Source of the DNA: Polynucleobacter sp. JS-Mosq-20-D10
GTDB taxonomy: Bacteria > Pseudomonadota > Gammaproteobacteria > Burkholderiales > Burkholderiaceae
Direction: 5' to 3'
NCBI RefSeq assembly: GCF_018687755.1
Contig: NZ_CP061305.1
Span: forward strand, 2,019,788-2,051,787
Length of the DNA stretch: 32,000 nt
The translations under genes and the position numbers were made by a program. Position 1 is the stretch's first letter. Each line of letters starts with the position of its first letter. The notes under the pieces are model-generated. The model ran no database searches, was not told the DNA's origin, and saw nothing but the letters and a program-made list of their open reading frames with translations. Positions 6,027-27,447 of the stretch are shown piece by piece.

Positions 6027-6037
6027 TAGCTCAAGAC

Positions 6038-14745: not shown

Positions 14746-15312
14746 ATGTCACAAGCAAGAGTTTTAAATCCACAAGAACTACGCCGAGTTTTAGACCATG
14801 TTGCTACACGTAGGCACAGCGCTCGTAATCGCGCTATGTTGCTACTTACGCACTACGCGGGTATGCGAGTAGGTGAAGTTGCCGCCCTACGCATAAACGA
14901 CGTTTTAAATAGCGACAACACGATTAAGGATGAAGTGCGCTTAATGCCCGAGCAAACCAAAGGAAAGCATGCTCGTACTGTTTACCTAAATGAACGTATG
15001 CGTAAGGAGATTAGCCAGTACTTGCGTGTACTTCGTATTAAAGATGCCAGCAAGCCTTTGTTCTACACACAAAAACAAGCTGGTTTCTCTGCTAACTCAT
15101 TAGCCCAGTACTTCTTTTATCTCTATCGAGCCTGCTTACTAGATGGTGCAAGCAGCCATAGTGGCAGACGTAGCTTTCTAACTGGGCTTGCTAATAAGGG
15201 TACGGCGATCCATATTTTGAAGAGCCTAGCAGGACATAGAAACATTAGCACTACCGCAAGCTATCTCTATAGCAGTCCAACACAACTTAAGGCCGCAGTT
15301 GAACTTGTGTAA
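14746..15312 (+). CDS. Short tyrosine recombinase (catalytic domain only, 188 aa)
   Basis: GGGAG RBS. AGMRVGEV (Arg I), HSGRRSF (HxxR), GHRNISTTASYLY (His...Tyr nucleophile). Confidence 0.8.
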   Translation: MSQARVLNPQELRRVLDHVATRRHSARNRAMLLLTHYAGMRVGEVAALRINDVLNSDNTIKDEVRLMPEQTKGKHARTVYLNERMRKEISQYLRVLRIKDASKPLFYTQKQAGFSANSLAQYFFYLYRACLLDGASSHSGRRSFLTGLANKGTAIHILKSLAGHRNISTTASYLYSSPTQLKAAVELV

Positions 15313-15695: not shown

Positions 15696-15712
15696 TGTCG
15701 TTTTAAACGTCA
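15696..15712. repeat. 17-bp palindrome family, one mismatch
   Basis: tgtcgttttaaacgtca. Overlaps the stop codon at 15703-15705. Confidence 0.75.
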
Positions 15713-16452
15713 TTCTTTGTTAACGGGAATCTACCTAATCCTGTATTGCTTATCAATTTTTCTGCGTTAGCTATGTAACGCTTCACACTCGCAGCCATGA
15801 CATTTCTAAACACTTGTCGCTCATTCATACTCATATTATCGGTAGTCATAGCAGAGGGCACTAATCGCATTTGCTCGCCAATCTTCCACAAGGGTATCTT
15901 GGGCTTTTCGTCTTTAACTTTTAGATATTCGTCATAAACCTGTAATGTCTTTTGTAAGTTCTCAATCGTGTAGTTACGCTCAAGTGGATAGTTAGCTGTA
16001 CTTTTATCTAAGTTACCTTTCTTGCGCCCAGGCTTATCTGCATGATGGCGCTTATCTAGCAACCTTATTAGGCGACTTTGAATATACCTCCTGCTAGATG
16101 TTAACGGGATAGCAACTACAAGTACCTTATCGTTTGTCCATGCCTCATCCCATTGAGATTTATCTTCAATCTCCCTAAGTGTTAATTCAGGAATAGTTTC
16201 AGCAAATAAATTAGCGCCACGCTTGTCCTCAGTCCACCACTTCTTAAAGTTATCTTCACGCACATCGCCAAAGTCTTTGTATAGCTTGGCTAACTTACCT
16301 TTGCCGCCCTTTTCACAACAAGCCAAATAGTCTTTATTTCGGCGTAGATACACCCACCACCAGTAATAAGGACTTTGTTGTTGATAAGACAAAGTACGCG
16401 GTTTGTTCTTAGTGCCAAAAGTGGGGTGAGGAGCGAGAAATCTTCTTAACAT
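15703..16452 (-). CDS. Island protein with W-rich YYWWWVYLRRNKDY motif (resembles DUF6499/DUF2285-type regulator domains of integrative elements; tentative)
   Basis: 249 aa. The motif resembles the WxFLRRNPxY signature recalled from ICE-borne regulator-like proteins. Confidence 0.55.
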   Translation of the reverse strand: MLRRFLAPHPTFGTKNKPRTLSYQQQSPYYWWWVYLRRNKDYLACCEKGGKGKLAKLYKDFGDVREDNFKKWWTEDKRGANLFAETIPELTLREIEDKSQWDEAWTNDKVLVVAIPLTSSRRYIQSRLIRLLDKRHHADKPGRKKGNLDKSTANYPLERNYTIENLQKTLQVYDEYLKVKDEKPKIPLWKIGEQMRLVPSAMTTDNMSMNERQVFRNVMAASVKRYIANAEKLISNTGLGRFPLTKNDV

Positions 16453-16578: not shown

Positions 16579-17370
16579 ATGAATACACTTATGAACGCAG
16601 CAGAAGTAACAGTAACTAGCAATGTCGTTTTAAACGACAAACCAGCACAAACTGCTGGAAATTCCAATGTAGTAGTTAATGCGACTAAATTGCTTGCCGG
16701 CATGGAAGCAAAGCGCATTTCATGGGAACAAGGTGCATATAGAACTAGTAATTTAGAGCTCTATAACGTTTTAGCTGAATGCCTACTATTTGCAGGCGAA
16801 CTATCTGTTAGCGAGTCTAAACAGCGTAGTGCCGCATTAGAAGCATTCTTCAAGGAGCGTGGGTATAAGTACAAGAAGGACTCACACATCATTGCTCGTG
16901 TAGTTCGCGCTGTATTTGGCAATATTGACCGTCGCCGTATCAGCACGTACGTCTTGGTACTACGCCAAGCTCAAAAGTCCAAAGTTGAAGCAACGCAATT
17001 AGCACAGTGGATTGAAGATAACCATGGCATTCAAGAAATCAAGCTTGCGCGTAGTGCCACTTTTATCAGCCCTACAGTAAAAGCATCTATCGCTAAAGCA
17101 GACTTTGAAAACCTGCCAGTACTAGCAATTGCTAAGTCTGAGCAACTTAGTCAGCTTGCTGATGCTGGATTCGTTGGTGAGGATTGTGTGCTTATTGCAC
17201 AGCAACTGGCTGATGGTAGCTTTGCCATTCGTGCATTGGTACGCAAAGAAGGTGCAGTCAATGCGGCTTTCACAGCATTGTATGGCGATATCAAATCGCA
17301 AGAGGTTGCCGCCAAGAAAGAAGTGGATGCGGCTAATGATGCTGATGGCGCTATTGCTAAACAAGCGTAA
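16579..17370 (+). CDS. Hypothetical protein, first gene of the plus-strand module
   Basis: 263 aa with no recognisable motif. Contains one copy of the 17-bp palindrome in frame (NVVLNDK). Confidence 0.6.
   Translation: MNTLMNAAEVTVTSNVVLNDKPAQTAGNSNVVVNATKLLAGMEAKRISWEQGAYRTSNLELYNVLAECLLFAGELSVSESKQRSAALEAFFKERGYKYKKDSHIIARVVRAVFGNIDRRRISTYVLVLRQAQKSKVEATQLAQWIEDNHGIQEIKLARSATFISPTVKASIAKADFENLPVLAIAKSEQLSQLADAGFVGEDCVLIAQQLADGSFAIRALVRKEGAVNAAFTALYGDIKSQEVAAKKEVDAANDADGAIAKQA
16623..16639. repeat. 17-bp palindrome, perfect, inside a CDS
   Basis: tgtcgttttaaacgaca within ORF 16579-17370. Confidence 0.9.
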
Positions 17371-17430: not shown

Positions 17431-18099
17431 ATGTTTATTAGAAAGGATTTTAAATATGAGCCCAACCAAATTGGTGACATCATCTGGGGCAATGCTGAGA
17501 GTCGTTTGCGAATCGAAGATATTGTCAGTGGTGCCGAAGCATTACCTTACTGCGGCAAATCAGCCATTCTTCTTTACGGAGTCTTTGGTACCGGCAAAAC
17601 CACACTCGCAAAGATGCTACCTAACGCAATTGAAAAAGGTAGAAGTGGCGAAAGCTTAGGCTTTGAAGCTGAATTTATTGGATGCCAGCAAGGATTCAAT
17701 GGCCCACAGGTAATGACGCTTATTGAAAGAATACTAAGTAAAACATCGTTCAATGCCAGCGGACTTCATTACTTCATACTAGACGAGGTGGATAACTTAT
17801 CTAGTCTGGCTCAGCAAAGTTTGAAATCAGCACTCAATACTGACAGGGGCATATTCATTCTCACAACAAACAATATCTCCGAGCTCGATAAGGGCTTGAA
17901 GGACAGGTGCGTGTTAGTTGAAATGAATGCCGCGCCAGTTAGCTCTTATCTACCACTGGCTAAGAGTTTAATAAGTGATATGGGTATTGTTATGAGTGAC
18001 ATTGACTTATTGCCTACTATTTCTGCGGCCAATGGATCTTTACGAAATCTCATACGTAACGTGGAAAGACTTGCTCGACGTAATAAGGGGGTCTTATGA
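17431..18099 (+). CDS. Compact AAA+ ATPase, clamp-loader/RFC-like core
   Basis: Walker A GVFGTGKT, Walker B FILDEVD, sensor-1 ILTTNN, SRC-like KDRCVLV. AAGGA RBS. Confidence 0.8.
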   Translation: MFIRKDFKYEPNQIGDIIWGNAESRLRIEDIVSGAEALPYCGKSAILLYGVFGTGKTTLAKMLPNAIEKGRSGESLGFEAEFIGCQQGFNGPQVMTLIERILSKTSFNASGLHYFILDEVDNLSSLAQQSLKSALNTDRGIFILTTNNISELDKGLKDRCVLVEMNAAPVSSYLPLAKSLISDMGIVMSDIDLLPTISAANGSLRNLIRNVERLARRNKGVL

Positions 18100-18305: not shown

Positions 18306-18331
18306 AGCCCGCTTATTAGCGGGCTATTTTA
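18306..18331 (+). terminator. Rho-independent terminator of the plus-strand AAA+ module
   Basis: agcccgct-tatt-agcgggct, followed by attttattt. Confidence 0.75.
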
Positions 18332-18333
18332 TT

Positions 18334-18350
18334 TGTCGTTTTAAACGACA
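18334..18350. repeat. 17-bp palindrome, perfect
   Basis: tgtcgttttaaacgaca, between the convergent operon ends and followed by a T-run. Confidence 0.9.
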
Positions 18351-18362
18351 TTTTTTCTATTC

Positions 18363-19358
18363 CTACAAATTGAGAGATTCCAAGTAGACTTCATCTCCCC
18401 GCCTCTTAATTAAAGTATTTGATAAAAGTCCGACCGTATTTGCATCCTTAAATACGTTTAAAAAGATCTCATCTGCTGAGTTATTAGAATTTGTAAACTT
18501 AGCCATCGCAAGCGATAAAAGTCCTCTTGCAGATATAAATTGGATGTTGTGCTTCAAAATACTTTTATAGAAATTCTGGGATAAATTCCCCACCTTGCTA
18601 GAACACAACTCATGATCTTGCGGAAGCAGATCCTTCTCATCATCACCAATTAGGAGCAATTTAATTGAGGAAACTTTGTATTTGCTTTCGAGCTTTAGCC
18701 CAGATAGCTCCTCGTCATATGCCAATATTTGTGACTCATATCTTCCTTCGGCCATAAGCTTTTTTAGCCCAATTTTTGCTTCCATGACAATTAAAGTGTC
18801 TTTCGCTAGCACACATATATCTAGACGCCCGTTACGATCTCTACCTCCAATCGTGAGGGGAATTTCTAAACCAATCTTTTCATTAATGCCAAATAGGTAT
18901 CTAGCAGTATTACCGCCCCATATCGATATATTTGTTGTTTCATGTATACCAGTATATTTTTCGAAACTTTTGTATTTGACGTTAAGGCTATCCAAAGAAT
19001 TTTCGGAGAAGCTAATAAGATGGGCTTTAATTTCTGCTAATTCGACCTTGGTATGCCCACTAAAGCTCGAGCAAGATGGAACTGCCTTAAGGCCATCTGA
19101 GAAGTTAATTTTTCCACCGGGACAGCTAAACGCACATGAGCCACATGAGAGGCACTGATCTTGATCAATACTAATTGCGTTTAATGCTCTATCGTAAGAA
19201 ATGCAGTTGATCTCGGTTGTTAATAACTCATCTTTGCTATTAACCACACCTTCGTCACCAAGAAAAATGGGCAGGTTTTTATAGATCTTATGCGTAAAGA
19301 CCAAGCATGGCGGGAGGCCATCGCCGCCAACGGGAGTCAGTTTATAACTACATGTCAC
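18363..19358 (-). CDS. Fe-S-motif protein with PD-(D/E)xK-like nuclease core (candidate restriction/effector nuclease)
   Basis: CLSCGSCAFSCP (CxxCxxCxxxCP) at about aa 69-80. GRLDICVLAKDTLIVMEAKIG gives D-x13-E-x-K. The GTG start overlaps the upstream stop (GTGA). Confidence 0.65.
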   Translation of the reverse strand: MTCSYKLTPVGGDGLPPCLVFTHKIYKNLPIFLGDEGVVNSKDELLTTEINCISYDRALNAISIDQDQCLSCGSCAFSCPGGKINFSDGLKAVPSCSSFSGHTKVELAEIKAHLISFSENSLDSLNVKYKSFEKYTGIHETTNISIWGGNTARYLFGINEKIGLEIPLTIGGRDRNGRLDICVLAKDTLIVMEAKIGLKKLMAEGRYESQILAYDEELSGLKLESKYKVSSIKLLLIGDDEKDLLPQDHELCSSKVGNLSQNFYKSILKHNIQFISARGLLSLAMAKFTNSNNSADEIFLNVFKDANTVGLLSNTLIKRRGDEVYLESLNL

Positions 19359-20527
19359 TTTAGCCTAGCATTTATATCTGCAAGTAGTGCGGCGGGAGCG
19401 CCTAAACTCAATTCATTCAAGTCTATTTCGTTCATTGGTCGTAATACTTGCCCCGATCTTTCTACAATAATTCCCGCAGAATTAGCAATTTGGATTTCAA
19501 TCAGCACTACCTTCTTTAGCTCTGCTAAATTCAAAACATATAAGTCGGGATTGCCTTTTAAAAAATCTACTAGCGCATCTATCGATACTGTTTGGCTTTT
19601 TTTGAAAGCATTGTTTAGTAAATATAAAATTGCAAAACGCCTGTTTTGTATCACGGCTGTAGATTGCATTGTTGCCTCTCTCACCTCAGCCTGATTATTT
19701 TCGCGTAATGCCTTAGAGTTTTTTGTCAAATTGTTATAGTCGAGCGTTCTCTTAACGCAAAAATTATTCTGTGTAATTTTTGGAATATCTAGAACCTTAA
19801 ACATTCTTTTTCCCCTCTTTTTAGCAAGAATGTATGGTGCAGAATCTATATGTGCATTTTTTGCGCTATATGCCGGAAAATCCACTGGCTTGAAAAAGCC
19901 GGCGGAAATTCCCCATGCAATTAAGCAGGACCTCGTTCTAGTATTGCTATCTTGCTCGGATCCGCTTGAAATGGTGATTCGACTTCCGTTATAAGTTACT
20001 TTTTCTTCTGTAATTGGGTAGCCTACAACTAGCTCAGATGTGTCAAATTCATCTGTATTTTTTTGTAATATCTGCCCTAATAAACCAACCATTGGTCCAT
20101 AACTTAATACTGCCTTCACAATAATTGGGTGCATGTCCGCGGAATTGAAATCTGTCTCTGCAAACTTCTTTCCTAGTGGGGTTAGGGTCACAGCGCCCTT
20201 ATTGTCTCTAGTGACCAACCCTAAGCCATGGAGGCTATTTCCAGTATTGCTTACTTCTTTTGACTTTGTAGCGTCAATATCAATGCTATTAGTTAGAGCA
20301 CAGCCAGACTTATCAAGCGCCGCCTTATAGCGACAGTGCTGTATCCCCAAATTTGCTTTTTTTGTTAAGTAGTCACAGAAGGAGTGAATATTTACTGCGT
20401 TTACATTGAATTTAATCTCATTAAACCTAAATGAACTAGTCGTATTAAATTTATTGTTTATTAGCTTGCACATACTGTGCAAACACTGAAATCTAGCCGC
20501 TGGATTTCGATTGATTAAAAATGCCAC
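19355..20527 (-). CDS. Unknown 390-aa protein of the methyltransferase operon
   Basis: The long ORF overlaps both neighbours. The start is uncertain (GTG 20527 or ATG 20473). LHGLGLVTRDNKGAVTLTPLGKKF looks like a winged-helix element. Confidence 0.6.
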   Translation of the reverse strand: MAFLINRNPAARFQCLHSMCKLINNKFNTTSSFRFNEIKFNVNAVNIHSFCDYLTKKANLGIQHCRYKAALDKSGCALTNSIDIDATKSKEVSNTGNSLHGLGLVTRDNKGAVTLTPLGKKFAETDFNSADMHPIIVKAVLSYGPMVGLLGQILQKNTDEFDTSELVVGYPITEEKVTYNGSRITISSGSEQDSNTRTRSCLIAWGISAGFFKPVDFPAYSAKNAHIDSAPYILAKKRGKRMFKVLDIPKITQNNFCVKRTLDYNNLTKNSKALRENNQAEVREATMQSTAVIQNRRFAILYLLNNAFKKSQTVSIDALVDFLKGNPDLYVLNLAELKKVVLIEIQIANSAGIIVERSGQVLRPMNEIDLNELSLGAPAALLADINARLK

Positions 20528-20993
20528 TAAATTTGCCTGACTTGAGATTTTTTATATCCTCAAATCTTATATCAGGAAGCTGATCCCTAGCAAATTTATC
20601 AGTTATGGCCTTTTGAGTGATATCAGGGTAAATAACCAATCCTTTATAGAGCTTCTTATTTACATTGCCCTCAGCACTTGAAATGATTGTTTGAAGCTCG
20701 AGAGCGGCCTCATCTACTCGTTTTGAGCTAGTGAATTTACAAAGAACAACAAATTCATCAATCTTAAAGACCATTTCTATACGCTTTGGCCTGCTGCCAT
20801 AAGGAAACTTCACGGACAAAAAGACTTTCGTTTTAATTACCCCCTCAACATCGAAAGCATGATTTATTAACTGTTGATCTTTATCTAGGTCTGCATAATC
20901 AATTAAGCATTCGCGTACAACCCCGTCTGGCTCCCCAATAACTATTGATGCCAATGTGGAGTTGAAGTTAAATTTATTTGATATCAATTTCAT
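20493..20993 (-). CDS. Unknown 166-aa protein of the methyltransferase operon
   Basis: The ATG at 20993 overlaps the upstream MTase gene by 20 nt. No recognisable motif. Confidence 0.55.
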   Translation of the reverse strand: MKLISNKFNFNSTLASIVIGEPDGVVRECLIDYADLDKDQQLINHAFDVEGVIKTKVFLSVKFPYGSRPKRIEMVFKIDEFVVLCKFTSSKRVDEAALELQTIISSAEGNVNKKLYKGLVIYPDITQKAITDKFARDQLPDIRFEDIKNLKSGKFSGIFNQSKSSG

Positions 20994-21822
20994 ATTGCTG
21001 ACCTACTGCGTTCAGCTTTCTTTTAATAAGCGGCGCATAGTCAGCATTTAACTCGTAACCGATCGCCTTACGACCTAGGGCTAGGGCCATTTTCGCCGTA
21101 GTACCAGTGCCCATAAATGGATCAAGGACCGTATCCCCCCAAAAACTATATAACTTAATCAAGCGTTTTGGTAACTCATCTGGGAAAGGGGCTGGATGCT
21201 CCTCAGACTTTGCCTTAGCTGGCTGCATTTCCCAGATAGAATTGATTGCCCAGTCTTGCCACTCTTTTGTAGTCAGCTTTGATTTTTCCTTAATCTCTTT
21301 TGGGACTGGCTCTCTTTTCCCTTTTTTAGAAAAAACTGTAATCCACTCATAAGGGTACGTAGTAAAGATATTTGGTGGATATGGATAACTGCCAAATGAA
21401 CTAAATCTTACGATTTTTCTCTTATCCCATATGAACAAGCCAAACTGATACATCTCGTTTGTTTCAAACATAAACCTGCTGATGTCATCCAATACCAATC
21501 TTGTCTCTCGACGATCAAATCTTGCGGCCTTACCCGTCAACAAGAATGGCATGATGTTTATGCAGAGCTTTCCATCTGGAGCCAATACTCTTATGCACTC
21601 TTTCCAAACCTTATTTAATTCTTCAATATAGGCTTCGTATGAAGTGCTACCAGTTCCAATTTGGGCATCATTGTCATAGTCTTTCAGTGTCCAATATGGC
21701 GGGCTAGTTATTACAAGATTGACTGAGCCGTCTTTAATATCAGACATATCTTGTGACGACTTAATATAAATTTGTGCGTCACCAATCTGAAAGCTAGTAT
21801 CTTTTGTTTTTACTTTTGCCAT
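20974..21822 (-). CDS. DNA methyltransferase, N4/N6 family, beta-type motif order (IV then I)
   Basis: VITSPPYW near the N-terminus. HPAPFPDELPKRLIKLYSFWGDTVLDPFMGTGTTA near the C-terminus. Confidence 0.9.
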   Translation of the reverse strand: MAKVKTKDTSFQIGDAQIYIKSSQDMSDIKDGSVNLVITSPPYWTLKDYDNDAQIGTGSTSYEAYIEELNKVWKECIRVLAPDGKLCINIMPFLLTGKAARFDRRETRLVLDDISRFMFETNEMYQFGLFIWDKRKIVRFSSFGSYPYPPNIFTTYPYEWITVFSKKGKREPVPKEIKEKSKLTTKEWQDWAINSIWEMQPAKAKSEEHPAPFPDELPKRLIKLYSFWGDTVLDPFMGTGTTAKMALALGRKAIGYELNADYAPLIKRKLNAVGQQYEIDIK

Positions 21823-22844
21823 ACGATGATCTGCTCTTTTCTGGCTGTTTTATTAATTTCATCAAATACTTGAGATGTTGAATTTGTATAGGTTCTTTCT
21901 ACAACCTCAAGCAACTTAAAGGGAGTTAGCTTATTAAAAAATTCCCCTCCATTTATAACTTTTCCGTGAATTTTTTTATCCCCCACCACAAAAATTATTT
22001 TTGCGCCTGGCTTGCACACCAGATACAAATCGTCTAATACTTCTTTCATGCTTTTTTCATAAGTATTAAATTTTTGTATCAAAGAGTCCCGAATGGAATC
22101 TCGTTTTACATCAAAAATATCGTAAATAATTTTTGCATAGTAAGCCGTGTAATCTAGGCAATCAAAATATGGTGGGCTGGTAAAAATATAGTCTACCGAA
22201 TTCTTTGGCAATATCTTTGAAACTTGTCTAGCATCTGAATAGTAGATCTTTGAATTATTCTTCTCTAGAGGATAAAAATGCTTCTTCAGCTTGTTAAGAA
22301 AGCATTCATAAAAATCAATAAATTTCTTAGGTTCAATATTTTTTCCAACAGAGCTTGATGTCCACATGTAGTGATTGCAACCCCTAGCCGTCAAGCAAAC
22401 AGCCCCCATAAAGCAAGACTTTAAATACGCGGGCATATCACCATAAAAGCTTGCTATGGCTGCGATTTGGTCCCCACTCTTTTCATGAAAATAAAATTGG
22501 GCTTGAGTGGAGAGCTTTTTCTTACCCTCAATTTTCTTTGCTTTATCAATAAATGTATTTGCAACTGAGAGCATCTCTTCTTTTTGGTGGGGAATATTAA
22601 GCTTACCCTCTGCAATTGTTACAGCAACTGGATTCATATCGAACCCAACAACATCCATTCCAAGTTTTGCGCCTTCGTAGAGTATGGTGCCAGATCCACA
22701 GAAAGGGTCCAATAAGATTGAATTCTTATCAAATTGCCCCACAATCTTTTGAGCATCTATAGAGGAAATTTTTCCTCTATACGGATACATCCCATGGACT
22801 GACTTAGGGTTATTAACTGAAGTTAAGGTCTCAAATTTGAACAT
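21810..22844 (-). CDS. DNA methyltransferase, N4/N6 family, permuted order (I then IV)
   Basis: HGMYPYRGKI...LLDPFCGSGTILYEGAKLG at aa 17-62. FTSPPYFD at about aa 220. Overlaps the next MTase gene by 13 nt. Confidence 0.85.
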   Translation of the reverse strand: MFKFETLTSVNNPKSVHGMYPYRGKISSIDAQKIVGQFDKNSILLDPFCGSGTILYEGAKLGMDVVGFDMNPVAVTIAEGKLNIPHQKEEMLSVANTFIDKAKKIEGKKKLSTQAQFYFHEKSGDQIAAIASFYGDMPAYLKSCFMGAVCLTARGCNHYMWTSSSVGKNIEPKKFIDFYECFLNKLKKHFYPLEKNNSKIYYSDARQVSKILPKNSVDYIFTSPPYFDCLDYTAYYAKIIYDIFDVKRDSIRDSLIQKFNTYEKSMKEVLDDLYLVCKPGAKIIFVVGDKKIHGKVINGGEFFNKLTPFKLLEVVERTYTNSTSQVFDEINKTARKEQIIVWQK

Positions 22845-22876: not shown

Positions 22877-22891
22877 TGGCCTCGATCTTCA

Positions 22892-22908
22892 TGTCGTTTA
22901 AAACGACA
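22892..22908. repeat. 17-bp palindrome, perfect (19 bp with flanks)
   Basis: a tgtcgtttaaaacgaca t. Lies 10 nt 3' of the integrase stop and upstream of the MTase operon. Confidence 0.9.
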
Positions 22909-22917
22909 TTGTGAGTT

Positions 22918-24192
22918 TTAGGCCAATTGCTCAGCCGCCATAGTAGGAGTTAGCTTTGAATAGTGCCGCTCAATCATGGCCGCACTATTGCCCATTTGTT
23001 TTGCCAGCGTATGAATATCAGTCTTATTTTCTAATAACTCTAAAGTAGCATAGGTATGACGTAGTGAATACAAGGTACGCATCTGCCCATCTTGACTCAT
23101 CGCTAGTCCACTATCTCTCATGAGCTTCTTGAATGTGCCATCTATGCGTAAAGGTTGATGCCCATCTGCCATCACAAATATCCTCTGTGGCGTACGTGTT
23201 TCAAACAGCCTATCGAATGGAATGTCATATACCGCCTTTTGGCGACTATGTAATCTCTTGAGGACATCAACAGCCCTATGCTTGGCTATGAGCCAACGCC
23301 CTCCAGTTTTGCCATCTACCCATATGCGCAAATACTTCTTGCCATCATTGGTATGCCATTCAATATTGTTCCAGCAGATATTGAGCGCTTCAGTGCCATG
23401 CCGCATACCGGTTAGTAACAGCATCTCTACGTAATCACGCACTAATGGGCGAATCTCACGCTCTATCTCAAGGCGACCTTCTTTAGCCCATCTCTCCATA
23501 TAGTCAAATAACTTAGTAATCTCTTCGCGACTAAAGGCAGGGCGGGTTTTGCCTTTATGCCCTCGAGTAGTTAATTTAGGTATTGCCACACGCTCACTAA
23601 TCCAACCTTTATTAACTGCCGTCTGCTGTAGCTTTGCCCATGCACTGGCAAAGTTCATTAAAGTACTGGATTTGGGTACTAGCCGCATCTGCCTATTACG
23701 CCAAATCTCAAACTCGTGAACATCTGTATAAGTAATTTCCTCAAGTCGCTTATCCATGAAATAAGGCAAGAAGTATTTCTCAATACAGGTGATGTAGCTT
23801 AGATAAACACTCTTGCCTATACCCTCACCCAAATCACGCCGCATTTCATAAAGCGTGGTGTGCGCTATTTCTGCAAACGTGGGTGACTTTTGTGCAAGCC
23901 CCAGTCTTTGGCGAAATCTGGCCTCATCATATAAATCACAGGCAACTCGGACAGCATGCTCAATTGAAGCTTGCTTGGTTGAGACTCTATCCCATGTGTT
24001 GTCATGTCGTTTAAAACGACATTGCCAGAGAGGGCTACTAGGCCTACGAAAGAGAACTACGTCGCCGTCACGTAAATAAAGCTCTGTAGGCTCTACGTAT
24101 TTGAGATGGCTTAGGGCTGTGAGCTGGGATTCTTGGAGTGGTGAGGAGATTACTTCTAGGTGACTTTCGGTTACTTTGATTACCTTAGTCAC
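22918..24192 (-). CDS. int: Tyrosine integrase (phage-integrase family)
   Basis: 424 aa. LLTGMRHGTE (Arg I), YSLRHTYAT (HxxR), IERHYSKL (His, Tyr). GTG start in the track. Confidence 0.9.
   Translation of the reverse strand: MTKVIKVTESHLEVISSPLQESQLTALSHLKYVEPTELYLRDGDVVLFRRPSSPLWQCRFKRHDNTWDRVSTKQASIEHAVRVACDLYDEARFRQRLGLAQKSPTFAEIAHTTLYEMRRDLGEGIGKSVYLSYITCIEKYFLPYFMDKRLEEITYTDVHEFEIWRNRQMRLVPKSSTLMNFASAWAKLQQTAVNKGWISERVAIPKLTTRGHKGKTRPAFSREEITKLFDYMERWAKEGRLEIEREIRPLVRDYVEMLLLTGMRHGTEALNICWNNIEWHTNDGKKYLRIWVDGKTGGRWLIAKHRAVDVLKRLHSRQKAVYDIPFDRLFETRTPQRIFVMADGHQPLRIDGTFKKLMRDSGLAMSQDGQMRTLYSLRHTYATLELLENKTDIHTLAKQMGNSAAMIERHYSKLTPTMAAEQLA
24005..24021. repeat. 17-bp palindrome, perfect (19 bp with flanks), inside the integrase CDS
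   Basis: a tgtcgtttaaaacgaca t, encoding CRFKRHD on the minus strand. Confidence 0.9.
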
Positions 24193-26478: not shown

Positions 26479-27447
26479 ATGAGTGACCTAGAGCGCCTCC
26501 ATCGCATCAAATATATGATTCAGGCCCGCAAATGCGTGCCCATTCAAGACTTCCTAGAAGAGCTTGAAATCTCTAAGGCCACCTTTAAGCGTGATTTAGA
26601 GTATCTAAGAGACAGGATGAATGCCTCAATCATCTTTGATCGTTCCGAAGGTGGTTATCGCTTTGATAAACCTAATTCGGGAGAAAAGATTGAACTACCA
26701 GGATTATGGTTCTCGGAAAAAGAAGTAACCGCCCTTGTACTAATGCAACATCTTCTATCAGGCTTAGATAAAGGGGGGTTGATTGAACCACACATTGCTC
26801 CACTTACCTCAATCATTGATGGCATTCTTGGGCAAAGTAACACTCCAGCAAAAGAACTGCGTAAGAGACTAAAAGTATTTGGAATGTCGTCACGTAAAAG
26901 TTCTATCGAAAGTTTTGAAGAAGTTGGTAATGCTCTCCTAACTCGCAAAAGGCTTCACATTACCTACTATGCACGCGGCAAAGATGAAACCACTGAGCGT
27001 GAAATATCTCCACAACGATTAATCTTTTATAGAGATAACTGGTATCTAGATGCCTACTGTCACCTACGGAATGATTTGCGTAGCTTTGCCGTGGACTGTA
27101 TTGGCAAGGTAATCATTACTAATATAAAGGCAGATGAAATTTCAGAAAAACAATTACACGAACACTTTGCAGAAAGCTATGGAATTTTCTCAGGCAAAGC
27201 TATTCAACGTTGCAAGTTAAAGTTCTCGCCTGAAAAGGCTAGATGGGTAAGTGCCGAGACTTGGCATGGCCAACAGGTTGGCACTTTCGACAAAGAAGGC
27301 AACTACCTTCTAGAGTTTGATTACAACCAAGATCCAGAATTGGTAATGGATATATTGAAACATGGGGCAGGGGTTGAGGTTTTGGCGCCAGCAAGTTTAC
27401 GTAAGCGGGTTCAAGACGAACTTTTAAAAGCATTAAGTAACTATTAA
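26479..27447 (+). CDS. WYL-domain transcriptional regulator (HTH-WYL-WCX, YafY/BrxR/CapW-like)
   Basis: N-terminal wHTH (VPIQDFLEELEISKATFKRDLEYLR) and a literal WYL motif (FYRDNWYLDAYCHLRNDLRSF). Confidence 0.85.
   Translation: MSDLERLHRIKYMIQARKCVPIQDFLEELEISKATFKRDLEYLRDRMNASIIFDRSEGGYRFDKPNSGEKIELPGLWFSEKEVTALVLMQHLLSGLDKGGLIEPHIAPLTSIIDGILGQSNTPAKELRKRLKVFGMSSRKSSIESFEEVGNALLTRKRLHITYYARGKDETTEREISPQRLIFYRDNWYLDAYCHLRNDLRSFAVDCIGKVIITNIKADEISEKQLHEHFAESYGIFSGKAIQRCKLKFSPEKARWVSAETWHGQQVGTFDKEGNYLLEFDYNQDPELVMDILKHGAGVEVLAPASLRKRVQDELLKALSNY

Follow-up and report, generated by a model that had tools for sequence, protein, structure and literature searches.

A five-gene cassette encoding a cysteine-rich, nuclease-like protein

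We analysed a 32,000-nucleotide stretch of DNA from Polynucleobacter sp. JS-Mosq-20-D10 (contig NZ_CP061305.1, positions 2,019,788 to 2,051,787; hereafter the window), whose minus strand carries five tightly packed, overlapping genes in the order M1, M2, small subunit, Rec and Nuc. The overlaps indicate that the genes are translationally coupled. M1 and M2 encode methyltransferases, and the last gene (18363..19358, minus strand) encodes Nuc, a protein of 331 residues in which an N-terminal ferredoxin-like cysteine domain is followed by a C-terminal PD-(D/E)xK core. From sequence comparisons and a structure model we propose, with a probability of about 0.6, that Nuc is the catalytic subunit of a Type II restriction–modification (R-M) system which is conserved, is built from several subunits and has so far escaped annotation, with an N-terminal domain that would hold two metal clusters. 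An earlier reading of the window, made without database searches (the sequence-only reading), had described Nuc as a ferredoxin-type motif fused to a PD-(D/E)xK-like nuclease, and all the strings that it quoted (NCISYD, CLSCGSCAFSCPGG, PSCSS and GRLDICVLAKDTLIVMEAKIGLKK) are present in the 331-residue minus-strand open reading frame (ORF).

The GTG start codon of Nuc and the TGA stop codon of the preceding gene share a GTGA overlap. An identical protein is found in the public annotation as FD967_10480 of Polynucleobacter sp. JS-Mosq-20-D10, a hypothetical protein of 313 residues whose gene model begins 18 codons late with respect to the conserved GTG (the segment at 19305-19358, minus strand, is left out). 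Owing to this late start the annotated protein lacks Cys3 and Cys18, both of which are invariant in homologues; these two residues at the extreme N-terminus were also overlooked in the sequence-only reading. Numbered along the full ORF, as throughout this text, the cysteines of Nuc are residues 3, 18, 52, 69, 72, 75, 79, 96, 182 and 252. Numbers in the structure model are one lower, the start codon having been left out.

Among 5.8 billion proteins, a word-indexed search returned 18 close relatives of Nuc, the names of which say nothing functional beyond 'ferredoxin' or 'PreA subunit'. When 1.84 billion cluster representatives were scanned with HMMER, the family gave 98 matches with E-values of at most 1e-3. 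True family members account for about 90 of them (clusters at 50% identity), and the remainder are polyferredoxins that align through the cysteine motif alone. A scan of a genome collection with the alignment of close relatives yielded a single locus, which is metagenome-assembled. The counts given below refer to a diverse alignment of 51 Nuc members with identities down to about 20%, in which the conserved core corresponds to the C-terminal two thirds of the protein and the invariant residues are E140, W147, E165, R175, G177, R178, D180, E193, K195, R206 and Y214.

Model libraries see little of the cassette. Only M1 and M2 are recognised by Pfam, NCBIfam, PADLOC and PHROGs, and because the libraries recognise nothing but the methylases, such cassettes are presumably scored today as orphan methyltransferases. 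Generic ferredoxin fragments aside, no PADLOC 2.0, NCBIfam or PHROGs model was found for any of the other three proteins (Nuc, Rec and the small subunit), and none of the three matched a restriction-enzyme model of Pfam, NCBIfam or PADLOC. Searching all PDB chains with the Nuc sequence and with the family profile returned ferredoxin-motif matches only, and no nuclease of solved structure.

The C-terminal domain of Nuc is a predicted PD-(D/E)xK nuclease

The C-terminal domain spans about residues 126-331 (18366..18983, minus strand) and was delimited by conservation, the order of elements in the model, Foldseek and Pfam PDDEXK_4. Its hallmark is the family signature RxGRxD(x12)ExK, which in Nuc reads RNGRLDICVLAKDTLIVMEAK (residues 175-195; 18774..18836, minus strand); the string GRLDICVLAKDTLIVMEAKIGLKK contains D180, E193 and K195. 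These three residues, together with E140 and E165, are unchanged in all 51 members. An AlphaFold2 (AF2) model built from the 51-sequence alignment had a predicted local distance difference test score (pLDDT) of 92.8 and a predicted template modelling score (pTM) of 0.93; an earlier AF2 model, built from a shallow alignment of close homologues, reached a pLDDT of 63 and its N-terminal domain was unusable. In model numbering, the elements are a helix at 139-155, strands at 160-167, 176-184 and 187-194, a helix at 197-219 and a strand at 229-236. This succession of helix, three strands, helix and strand is the one expected for a PD-(D/E)xK core, where E140 opens the core helix, E165 and D180 fall on the first and second strands, respectively, and the third strand bears E193-x-K195. 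The sequence-only reading had asked whether a nuclease fold surrounds D...EAK, and the model shows the order of elements expected of one.

Structural comparisons point the same way. The interpretable top Foldseek matches of Nuc in the PDB and BFVD were all PD-(D/E)xK nucleases: Cdn1, VC1899, Can2/Card1, McrC, the R2 endonuclease and OkrAI, as well as viral RecB-like or PDDEXK proteins. The matches of best probability (0.97-0.99) to the nuclease domain of Nuc came from R.BspD6I, which consists of Nt.BspD6I and a small catalytic subunit, and from FokI. For Nt.BspD6I the probability was up to 0.99 with an E-value of about 0.02, and for the R.BspD6I small subunit (186 residues) the TM-score was 0.48 on the target. 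What these enzymes have in common with Nuc is an acid on the helix, an aspartate in strand 2 and ExK in strand 3. At the sequence level, Pfam PF14281 (PDDEXK_4), a general model for the superfamily that is tied to no particular system and lacks an iron–sulfur (Fe-S) domain, matched the RxGRxD...ExK core of seven of the 51 members, with a best E-value of 5.8e-6; member P0064 scored 22.9 bits against a curated cut-off of 22.3, the match spanning the RxGRxD...ExK region.

Several results weigh against this assignment. No Foldseek match in PDB or BFVD had an E-value of 1e-3 or below, the best being 2e-3 to 4e-3, so that Nuc has no close structural relative there and the fold assignment rests on consistent weak matches rather than on one strong match. 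The Nuc of the window itself did not match PDDEXK_4 at E-values up to 1. In addition, hhalign of the Nuc family against the FokI cleavage domain (using a FokI sequence not taken from a database record) detected no similarity, with a probability of 0.5%. Taking the invariance of the five catalytic residues together with the canonical order of the model, we consider the PD-(D/E)xK nature of the C-terminal half of Nuc to be well supported by sequence conservation and modelling.

The N-terminal domain of Nuc resembles ferredoxins

The N-terminal domain comprises about residues 1-125 (18984..19358, minus strand) and contains eight conserved cysteines; it was defined from cysteine invariance, hhalign, Foldseek and Pfam. 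The CxxCxxCxxxCP motif lies at residues 69-80 (CLSCGSCAFSCP; 19119..19154, minus strand) and is made up of Cys69, Cys72, Cys75 and Cys79-Pro80, Cys52 being found upstream within NCISYD and Cys96 downstream within PSCSS. Homologues with as little as about 31-34% identity still have every one of the eight cysteines (3, 18, 52, 69, 72, 75, 79 and 96), and CxxCxxCxxxCP is unchanged throughout the members that carry the eight. With hhalign, residues 58-82 of the eight-cysteine profile, which cover a strand and the motif, aligned at a probability of 91.7% and an E-value of 7.8e-7 with a clostridial 2x[4Fe-4S] ferredoxin (a sequence not taken from a database record), in the half that holds its second CxxCxxCxxxCP. 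The motifs noticed by the sequence-only reading, this one and that of the nuclease core, are thus not chance occurrences. Foldseek comparison of the N-terminal domain gave the Fe-S subunits of WOR5 and of aldehyde oxidoreductase (AOR) at probabilities of 0.57-0.72, and the weak PDB matches of the family include 7Fe ferredoxins and ABCE1 (6tmf_d).

The cysteines are not retained uniformly across the family. All eight are present in 21 of the 51 members; 13 keep only the upstream cysteine and CxxCxxC (residues 52, 69, 72 and 75), a further 13 have no N-terminal cysteines at all, and the pattern is irregular in four. Cysteines are therefore kept or lost in two blocks, {52,69,72,75} and {3,18,79,96}, and Cys79, the fourth cysteine of CxxCxxCxxxCP, co-varies with the distant Cys3, Cys18 and Cys96 and not with its neighbours in the motif. 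This co-variation in blocks points to two four-cysteine sites. In ferredoxins, the cysteine of the Cys-Pro pair ligates the other cluster, while the upstream cysteine and CxxCxxC make up one site, and the pattern in Nuc matches this arrangement. The domain is thus likely to contain two sites, with ligands crossing between them as they do in ferredoxins; from the analysis of the blocks, and by analogy with 7Fe ferredoxins, we assign Cys52, 69, 72 and 75 to a putative site A and Cys3, 18, 79 and 96 to a putative site B. Most likely, the domain binds two [4Fe-4S]-type clusters, where we infer both the metal and the stoichiometry. Of the module proposed in the sequence-only reading, the ferredoxin-type character stands, while the single four-cysteine site gives way to eight cysteines in two co-varying sets and probably to two sites.

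With the 2x[4Fe-4S] and 7Fe ferredoxins of the Fer4 clan, Nuc aligns over the motif of the second half and the strand before it. The spacing between Cys52 and Cys69 (17 residues) is near that between Cys20 and Cys39 in 7Fe ferredoxin, which is 19 residues. However, the first motif of Nuc is non-canonical, with Cys3, Cys18 and Cys96 widely spaced, and the domain is fused to an enzyme rather than being a free electron carrier. The Pfam scores also count against a ferredoxin assignment: over residues 62-82 of the window protein the Fer4 models remain under their gathering thresholds (Fer4_2, 22.3 versus 24.5 bits; Fer4, 20.7 versus 21.1 bits). Some homologues do pass Fer4 thresholds in precomputed annotations (PF00037, PF12797), and Fer4_6 is matched by 18 of the 51 members.

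Given these sub-threshold scores and the absence of canonical Fe-S spacing in the set formed by Cys3, 18, 79 and 96, some or all of the conserved cysteines might instead bind structural zinc, which would make the N-terminal domain a zinc-stabilised interaction or DNA-binding module. Structural zinc sites are common in restriction enzymes, and Rec, the product of the neighbouring gene, also has four invariant, widely spaced cysteines that resemble a zinc site. We nevertheless regard zinc as unlikely for Nuc. The exact CxxCxxCxxxCP and the strand before it match the ferredoxin profile at 91.7%, the Foldseek matches are Fe-S subunits of polyferredoxin type, and the division of the motif cysteines between two co-varying sets is the signature of ferredoxin cross-ligation, for which zinc binding offers no rationale.

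A different reading, which takes Nuc for a metabolic ferredoxin or oxidoreductase subunit that lies beside methylase genes by coincidence, is suggested by the names of homologues in JGI data ('ferredoxin', 'NAD-dependent dihydropyrimidine dehydrogenase PreA subunit'). This explanation is effectively refuted: the likeness to ferredoxins is limited to about 25 residues, two thirds of the protein form a nuclease-type domain with an invariant D...ExK, many family members contain no cysteine, and the linkage to methylases is conserved while redox enzymes are absent nearby.

Fe-S clusters are found in other PD-(D/E)xK nucleases. In AddB, Cas4, Dna2 and Exo5 an iron staple, made of one cysteine before and three after the core, pins the nuclease core. 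The likeness to Nuc consists of a PD-(D/E)xK nuclease joined to a cysteine-ligated Fe-S cluster thought to be structural. In Nuc, by contrast, the candidate ligands all lie within residues 3-96, in a separate N-terminal domain that has CxxCxxCxxxCP and probably two sites. No iron-staple triad of the CxxCx5C type follows the Nuc core, the nuclease domain of which contains only Cys182 and Cys252, both variable. The iron-staple nucleases form a RecB-like clade, to which no homology of Nuc was detected. The difference from AddB, Cas4 and Dna2 that the sequence-only reading had drawn is borne out in this respect.

Methyltransferases and partner subunits

M1 (344 residues; 21810..22844, minus strand) is a D12-like enzyme with its S-adenosylmethionine-binding motif first, FCGSG at residue 48 preceding SPPY at residue 223; it was matched by Pfam N6_N4_Mtase and MethyltransfD12 and by PADLOC MTase_II. 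M2 (282 residues; 20974..21822, minus strand) is a beta-class N6/N4 methyltransferase (Pfam N6_N4_Mtase, E-value 8.7e-47; PADLOC MTase_II, 2e-68) in which SPPY at residue 40 precedes FMGTG at residue 236. The motif order of the two enzymes is thus opposite, and SPPY is present in both. SPPY is more typical of N4-cytosine than of N6-adenine enzymes. Because both methyltransferases carry it, the modified base may be either N4-methylcytosine (m4C) or N6-methyladenine (m6A), which is a weakness of our interpretation.

Rec (390 residues; 19355..20527, minus strand) is translationally coupled to Nuc; its position and a profile search make it the putative subunit for DNA recognition. Over 220 homologues exist, every one of them named hypothetical, and Rec lies immediately upstream of Nuc in all loci examined. 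It is also the best conserved of the three non-methylase proteins, with 42-50% identity between Polynucleobacter and Bacteroidota. When the Rec profile was compared with 177,635 PDB sequences, FokI was the sole match below an E-value of 0.1 (0.033, or 0.01 with a broader profile). Residues 100-163 of Rec align with FokI 112-177, inside the recognition domain, and a second collinear piece was non-significant. A weak match to the winged-helix model AAA_assoc_C was also obtained. The FokI match is suggestive of a role in recognition; against it stand the marginal statistics (E-values of 0.01-0.03 over about 65 residues), and the similarity may be that of a generic winged-helix motif. With tblastn, Rec found no match in plasmid and phage collections. 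Cysteines 15, 51, 65 and 76 of Rec are invariant and widely spaced, and they are kept even in locus L009, whose nuclease has no cysteines. Judging from this conservation, they probably form a structural zinc or other metal site.

The small subunit (166 residues; 20493..20993, minus strand) was recognised by its conserved position, which is the same in every locus examined, and by hhalign. It carries the pattern RxKR-I-E...x-x-K without the acid of ExK, and its conserved residues are R68, K70, R71, usually E73, and K86. Its profile gave no match in PDB. In an hhalign comparison with the Nuc family the two align in register, the conserved set falling on R175, R178, D180 and K195 and the first strand on strand 1 of Nuc. 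In loci L007 (6188-6793) and L014 (4207-4806), the small subunits are about 200 residues long and have their own N-terminal ferredoxin-type cysteine domain, with CDNCMLCEIVCP after five cysteines in L007 and C-x17-CxxCxxC in L014. Since these two proteins share the architecture of Nuc, they support the paralogy, whereas the hhalign statistics are weak (E-value 1.6e-3, probability 16%) and count against it. On balance, the sequence comparisons make the small subunit a probable paralogue of Nuc whose active site is either degenerate or of a non-canonical kind, and the Fe-S module appears to be carried by either of the paralogous subunits, depending on the lineage.

The small subunit–Rec–Nuc module is conserved beside two methylases

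In every contig that was long enough, a small protein (140-201 residues), a protein of about 390-400 residues and Nuc follow each other in this order beside the same two methylase types. The module is seen in Proteobacteria, Bacteroidota and metagenomes. The loci include a 34%-identical relative (L001), two with four-cysteine Nuc proteins (L007 and L014), one with a cysteine-free Nuc (L009) and four from Bacteroidota (L010-L013). The methylases of L007 and L014 are convergent with the module, and M1 is directly preceded by a controller gene of the HTH_3 type in three contigs from Bacteroidota. No conserved ATPase or helicase motor was detected among the module loci examined. A conserved module next to a methylase pair, with no conserved ATPase, indicates a Type II R-M system that has three components besides its methylases. 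The restriction effector of the sequence-only reading is hence upheld insofar as Nuc belongs to an R-M operon, but Nuc does not stand alone in it: the genes for the small subunit and Rec are conserved along with it.

Nuc has a complete catalytic site and a nuclease domain of about 200 residues with room for recognition elements, and the similarities of Rec to FokI and of the small subunit to Nuc are weak. Nuc might therefore be a self-sufficient homodimeric Type II endonuclease, with Rec and the small subunit serving in regulation, methylase specificity or anti-anti-restriction. The conservation of the module makes this improbable: in all loci examined across phyla, the genes for the small subunit, Rec and Nuc are neighbours in an unchanged order and mostly overlap, even where the methylases are on the opposite strand, and Rec is the most conserved of the three. 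Furthermore, no DNA-recognition domain was detectable in Nuc.

A probable structural role for the clusters

Orthologues of Nuc with four cysteines or none keep the same operon and the same catalytic residues. Since they sit in the same operon, the clusters would be accessory and dispensable for the basic restriction function, and their role is probably one in structure or assembly. A structural or docking role is favoured because the operon and the catalytic residues persist with four or no cysteines and because no redox partner is linked. One result weakens this argument. The cysteine-free N-terminal domains are collinear with the ferredoxin domain, but the homology is not significant (hhalign probability 3%, E-value 0.013), and for these members the loss of cysteines from a retained fold is consequently unproven.

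Precedents for such a role exist. ABCE1/Rli1 and subunit D of archaeal RNA polymerase are nucleic-acid-handling proteins that have a ferredoxin-type di-cluster [4Fe-4S] domain, N-terminal or inserted, with a role in structure or assembly, and in archaeal subunit D the cysteines have been lost in many lineages while function was kept. This loss parallels the series of eight, four and no cysteines in the Nuc family. The catalytic partners, an ABC ATPase and an RNA polymerase, are unrelated to Nuc, and homology has been shown for the ferredoxin motif alone.

The sequence-only reading had considered that the domain senses redox state or DNA charge. Oxygen readily breaks down exposed [4Fe-4S] clusters, which serve as sensors, as in FNR, or have been proposed as reporters of charge transport, as in EndoIII and MutY. 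With this general precedent, the Fe-S domain of Nuc could be a regulatory sensor through which redox state, oxygen, iron status or DNA charge transport gates the nuclease. The strict conservation of eight cysteines throughout the largest clade, even where identity is as low as about 31%, would fit such a function, as would the extra ferredoxin-type cysteines in the small subunits of the four-cysteine clade, where the number of clusters per system seems to be maintained; these compensating motifs are a hint from sequence that cluster number matters. We consider sensing rather unlikely all the same, and found no evidence for it. Cysteine-free orthologues keep the operon and the catalytic site, so sensing would not be essential to the mechanism; no reductase or other redox partner gene was present in the loci examined; and Polynucleobacter, an aerobe, still keeps all eight cysteines. 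The sequence itself gives nothing by which sensing could be told from a structural role.

A predicted multi-subunit, type IIS-like restriction enzyme

In the scheme that we favour, M1 and M2 would protect the host DNA; two methyltransferases are usual where an asymmetric site calls for a different enzyme on each strand. Rec would supply sequence recognition through winged-helix modules weakly like the FokI recognition domain, and Nuc would cut DNA at a canonical PD-(D/E)xK site formed by E140, E165, D180, E193 and K195. In doing so Nuc would probably work together with the small subunit, parallel to heteromeric type IIS or type IIT enzymes such as the BspD6I heterodimer. The ferredoxin-like domain is predicted to fold around two clusters and to serve in folding or in subunit docking, not in redox chemistry. 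The enzyme as a whole is likely to be a multi-subunit, type IIS-like restriction enzyme, in which we infer both the complex and the type IIS-like mode of cutting.

The closest parallels are FokI and BspD6I, where, as proposed here, recognition and cleavage are apart, more than one nuclease-type polypeptide takes part and two methylase activities protect the host. FokI offers the only PDB sequence match of Rec, and that match lies in its recognition domain. Differing from both enzymes, recognition in the new system would be on a polypeptide of its own and not in an N-terminal domain, and there are three restriction genes instead of one or two. The type IIS traits of FokI and BspD6I, an asymmetric site and cutting at a distance, are here predicted from the genes. 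To our knowledge, neither FokI nor BspD6I has a cysteine-rich or Fe-S domain. DpnII-like systems, which consist of two methylases and one nuclease, have a similar pair of D12-like and N6_N4 methylases. They differ by gene count, three non-methylase genes being present here as against one, a distinction drawn without comparison with R.DpnII itself.

Full-text literature searches found no restriction enzyme with a ferredoxin-type or Fe-S domain; one candidate paper on Fe-S or ferredoxin restriction enzymes was rejected, as it concerned frataxin-like toxins. None that carries a ferredoxin-type Fe-S domain is known to us, and the fusion of a ferredoxin-like domain to a restriction nuclease, together with the three-subunit build, would be unprecedented among described restriction enzymes. 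Restriction enzymes are among the best-catalogued proteins, and the R-M architecture of five to six genes described here had not been annotated. The natural series of orthologues with eight, four and no cysteines in one operon renders the role of Fe-S clusters on DNA enzymes unusually tractable, and these variants allow structural and sensing roles to be separated. If recognition and cleavage are indeed on separate polypeptides, the system is a possible source of modular, programmable nucleases. A bolder version, which we hold to be speculative and rather improbable, is a new class of three-subunit 'split FokI-like' enzyme whose di-cluster domain, borne by Nuc or divided in some lineages between Nuc and the paralogous small subunit, acts as a switch, coupling cleavage to cluster integrity or redox state (through oxygen, iron or the oxidative stress of an infection), or relays electrons between subunits. 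Should the di-cluster domain gate cleavage, this would be the first Fe-S-gated restriction endonuclease.

Genomic surroundings of the cassette

A GC-rich hairpin (GCCCGC-loop-GCGGGC; 18306..18325) lies between Nuc and a convergent AAA-ATPase gene and is likely, from its sequence, to be the terminator at the 3' end of the operon. The ATPase (17431-18099) is short and resembles RFC or clamp-loader proteins; it was rejected as a member of the system because it is encoded on the other strand and none of the other loci has it. On the other side, a tyrosine recombinase/integrase gene (22918..24192, minus strand; Pfam Phage_integrase and an XerA-like NCBIfam model) is found directly upstream of the cassette and is mentioned as context only. 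This gene and a truncated integrase at 14746-15312 place the cassette in a mobile island. Also present in the island are two ORFs that no family model matches (15703-16452 and 16579-17370) and a WYL-WCX regulator (26479-27447).

In the Bacteroidota loci, integrase or primase-type mobile-element genes are present in all four (L010-L013). The cassette adjoins a prokaryotic Argonaute (pAgo) with a Piwi domain in L010-L012, and GmrSD-type genes lie alongside in L010 and L012. These four loci are defence islands on integrative elements, so the system recurs in Bacteroidota in islands that also hold pAgo and GmrSD. In the contig of member P0015 (JGI 3300059473), the genes for the small subunit, Rec and Nuc are convergent with the methylase pair and are preceded by GmrSD_N, HNH_2 and a 620-residue protein with faint Fer4_2, DUF3470 and HEAT matches. 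On the basis of these matches, the 620-residue protein may be a further case of an Fe-S protein associated with defence.

A palindrome of about 18-19 nucleotides, ATGTCGTTTWAAACGACA(T), occurs nine times in the 32 kb of the window (at 6037, 12097, 15695, 16622, 18333, 22891, 24004, 28741 and 30959), where shuffled sequences predict none. Two copies bracket the cassette, one just past the Nuc stop codon (18333-18351) and one in the gap that separates the integrase stop codon from the start of M1 (22891-22909). Another lies within the integrase ORF, where it codes for QCRFKRH. The palindrome may be a genome-wide Polynucleobacter repeat resembling repetitive extragenic palindromic (REP) elements, terminators or uptake signals.

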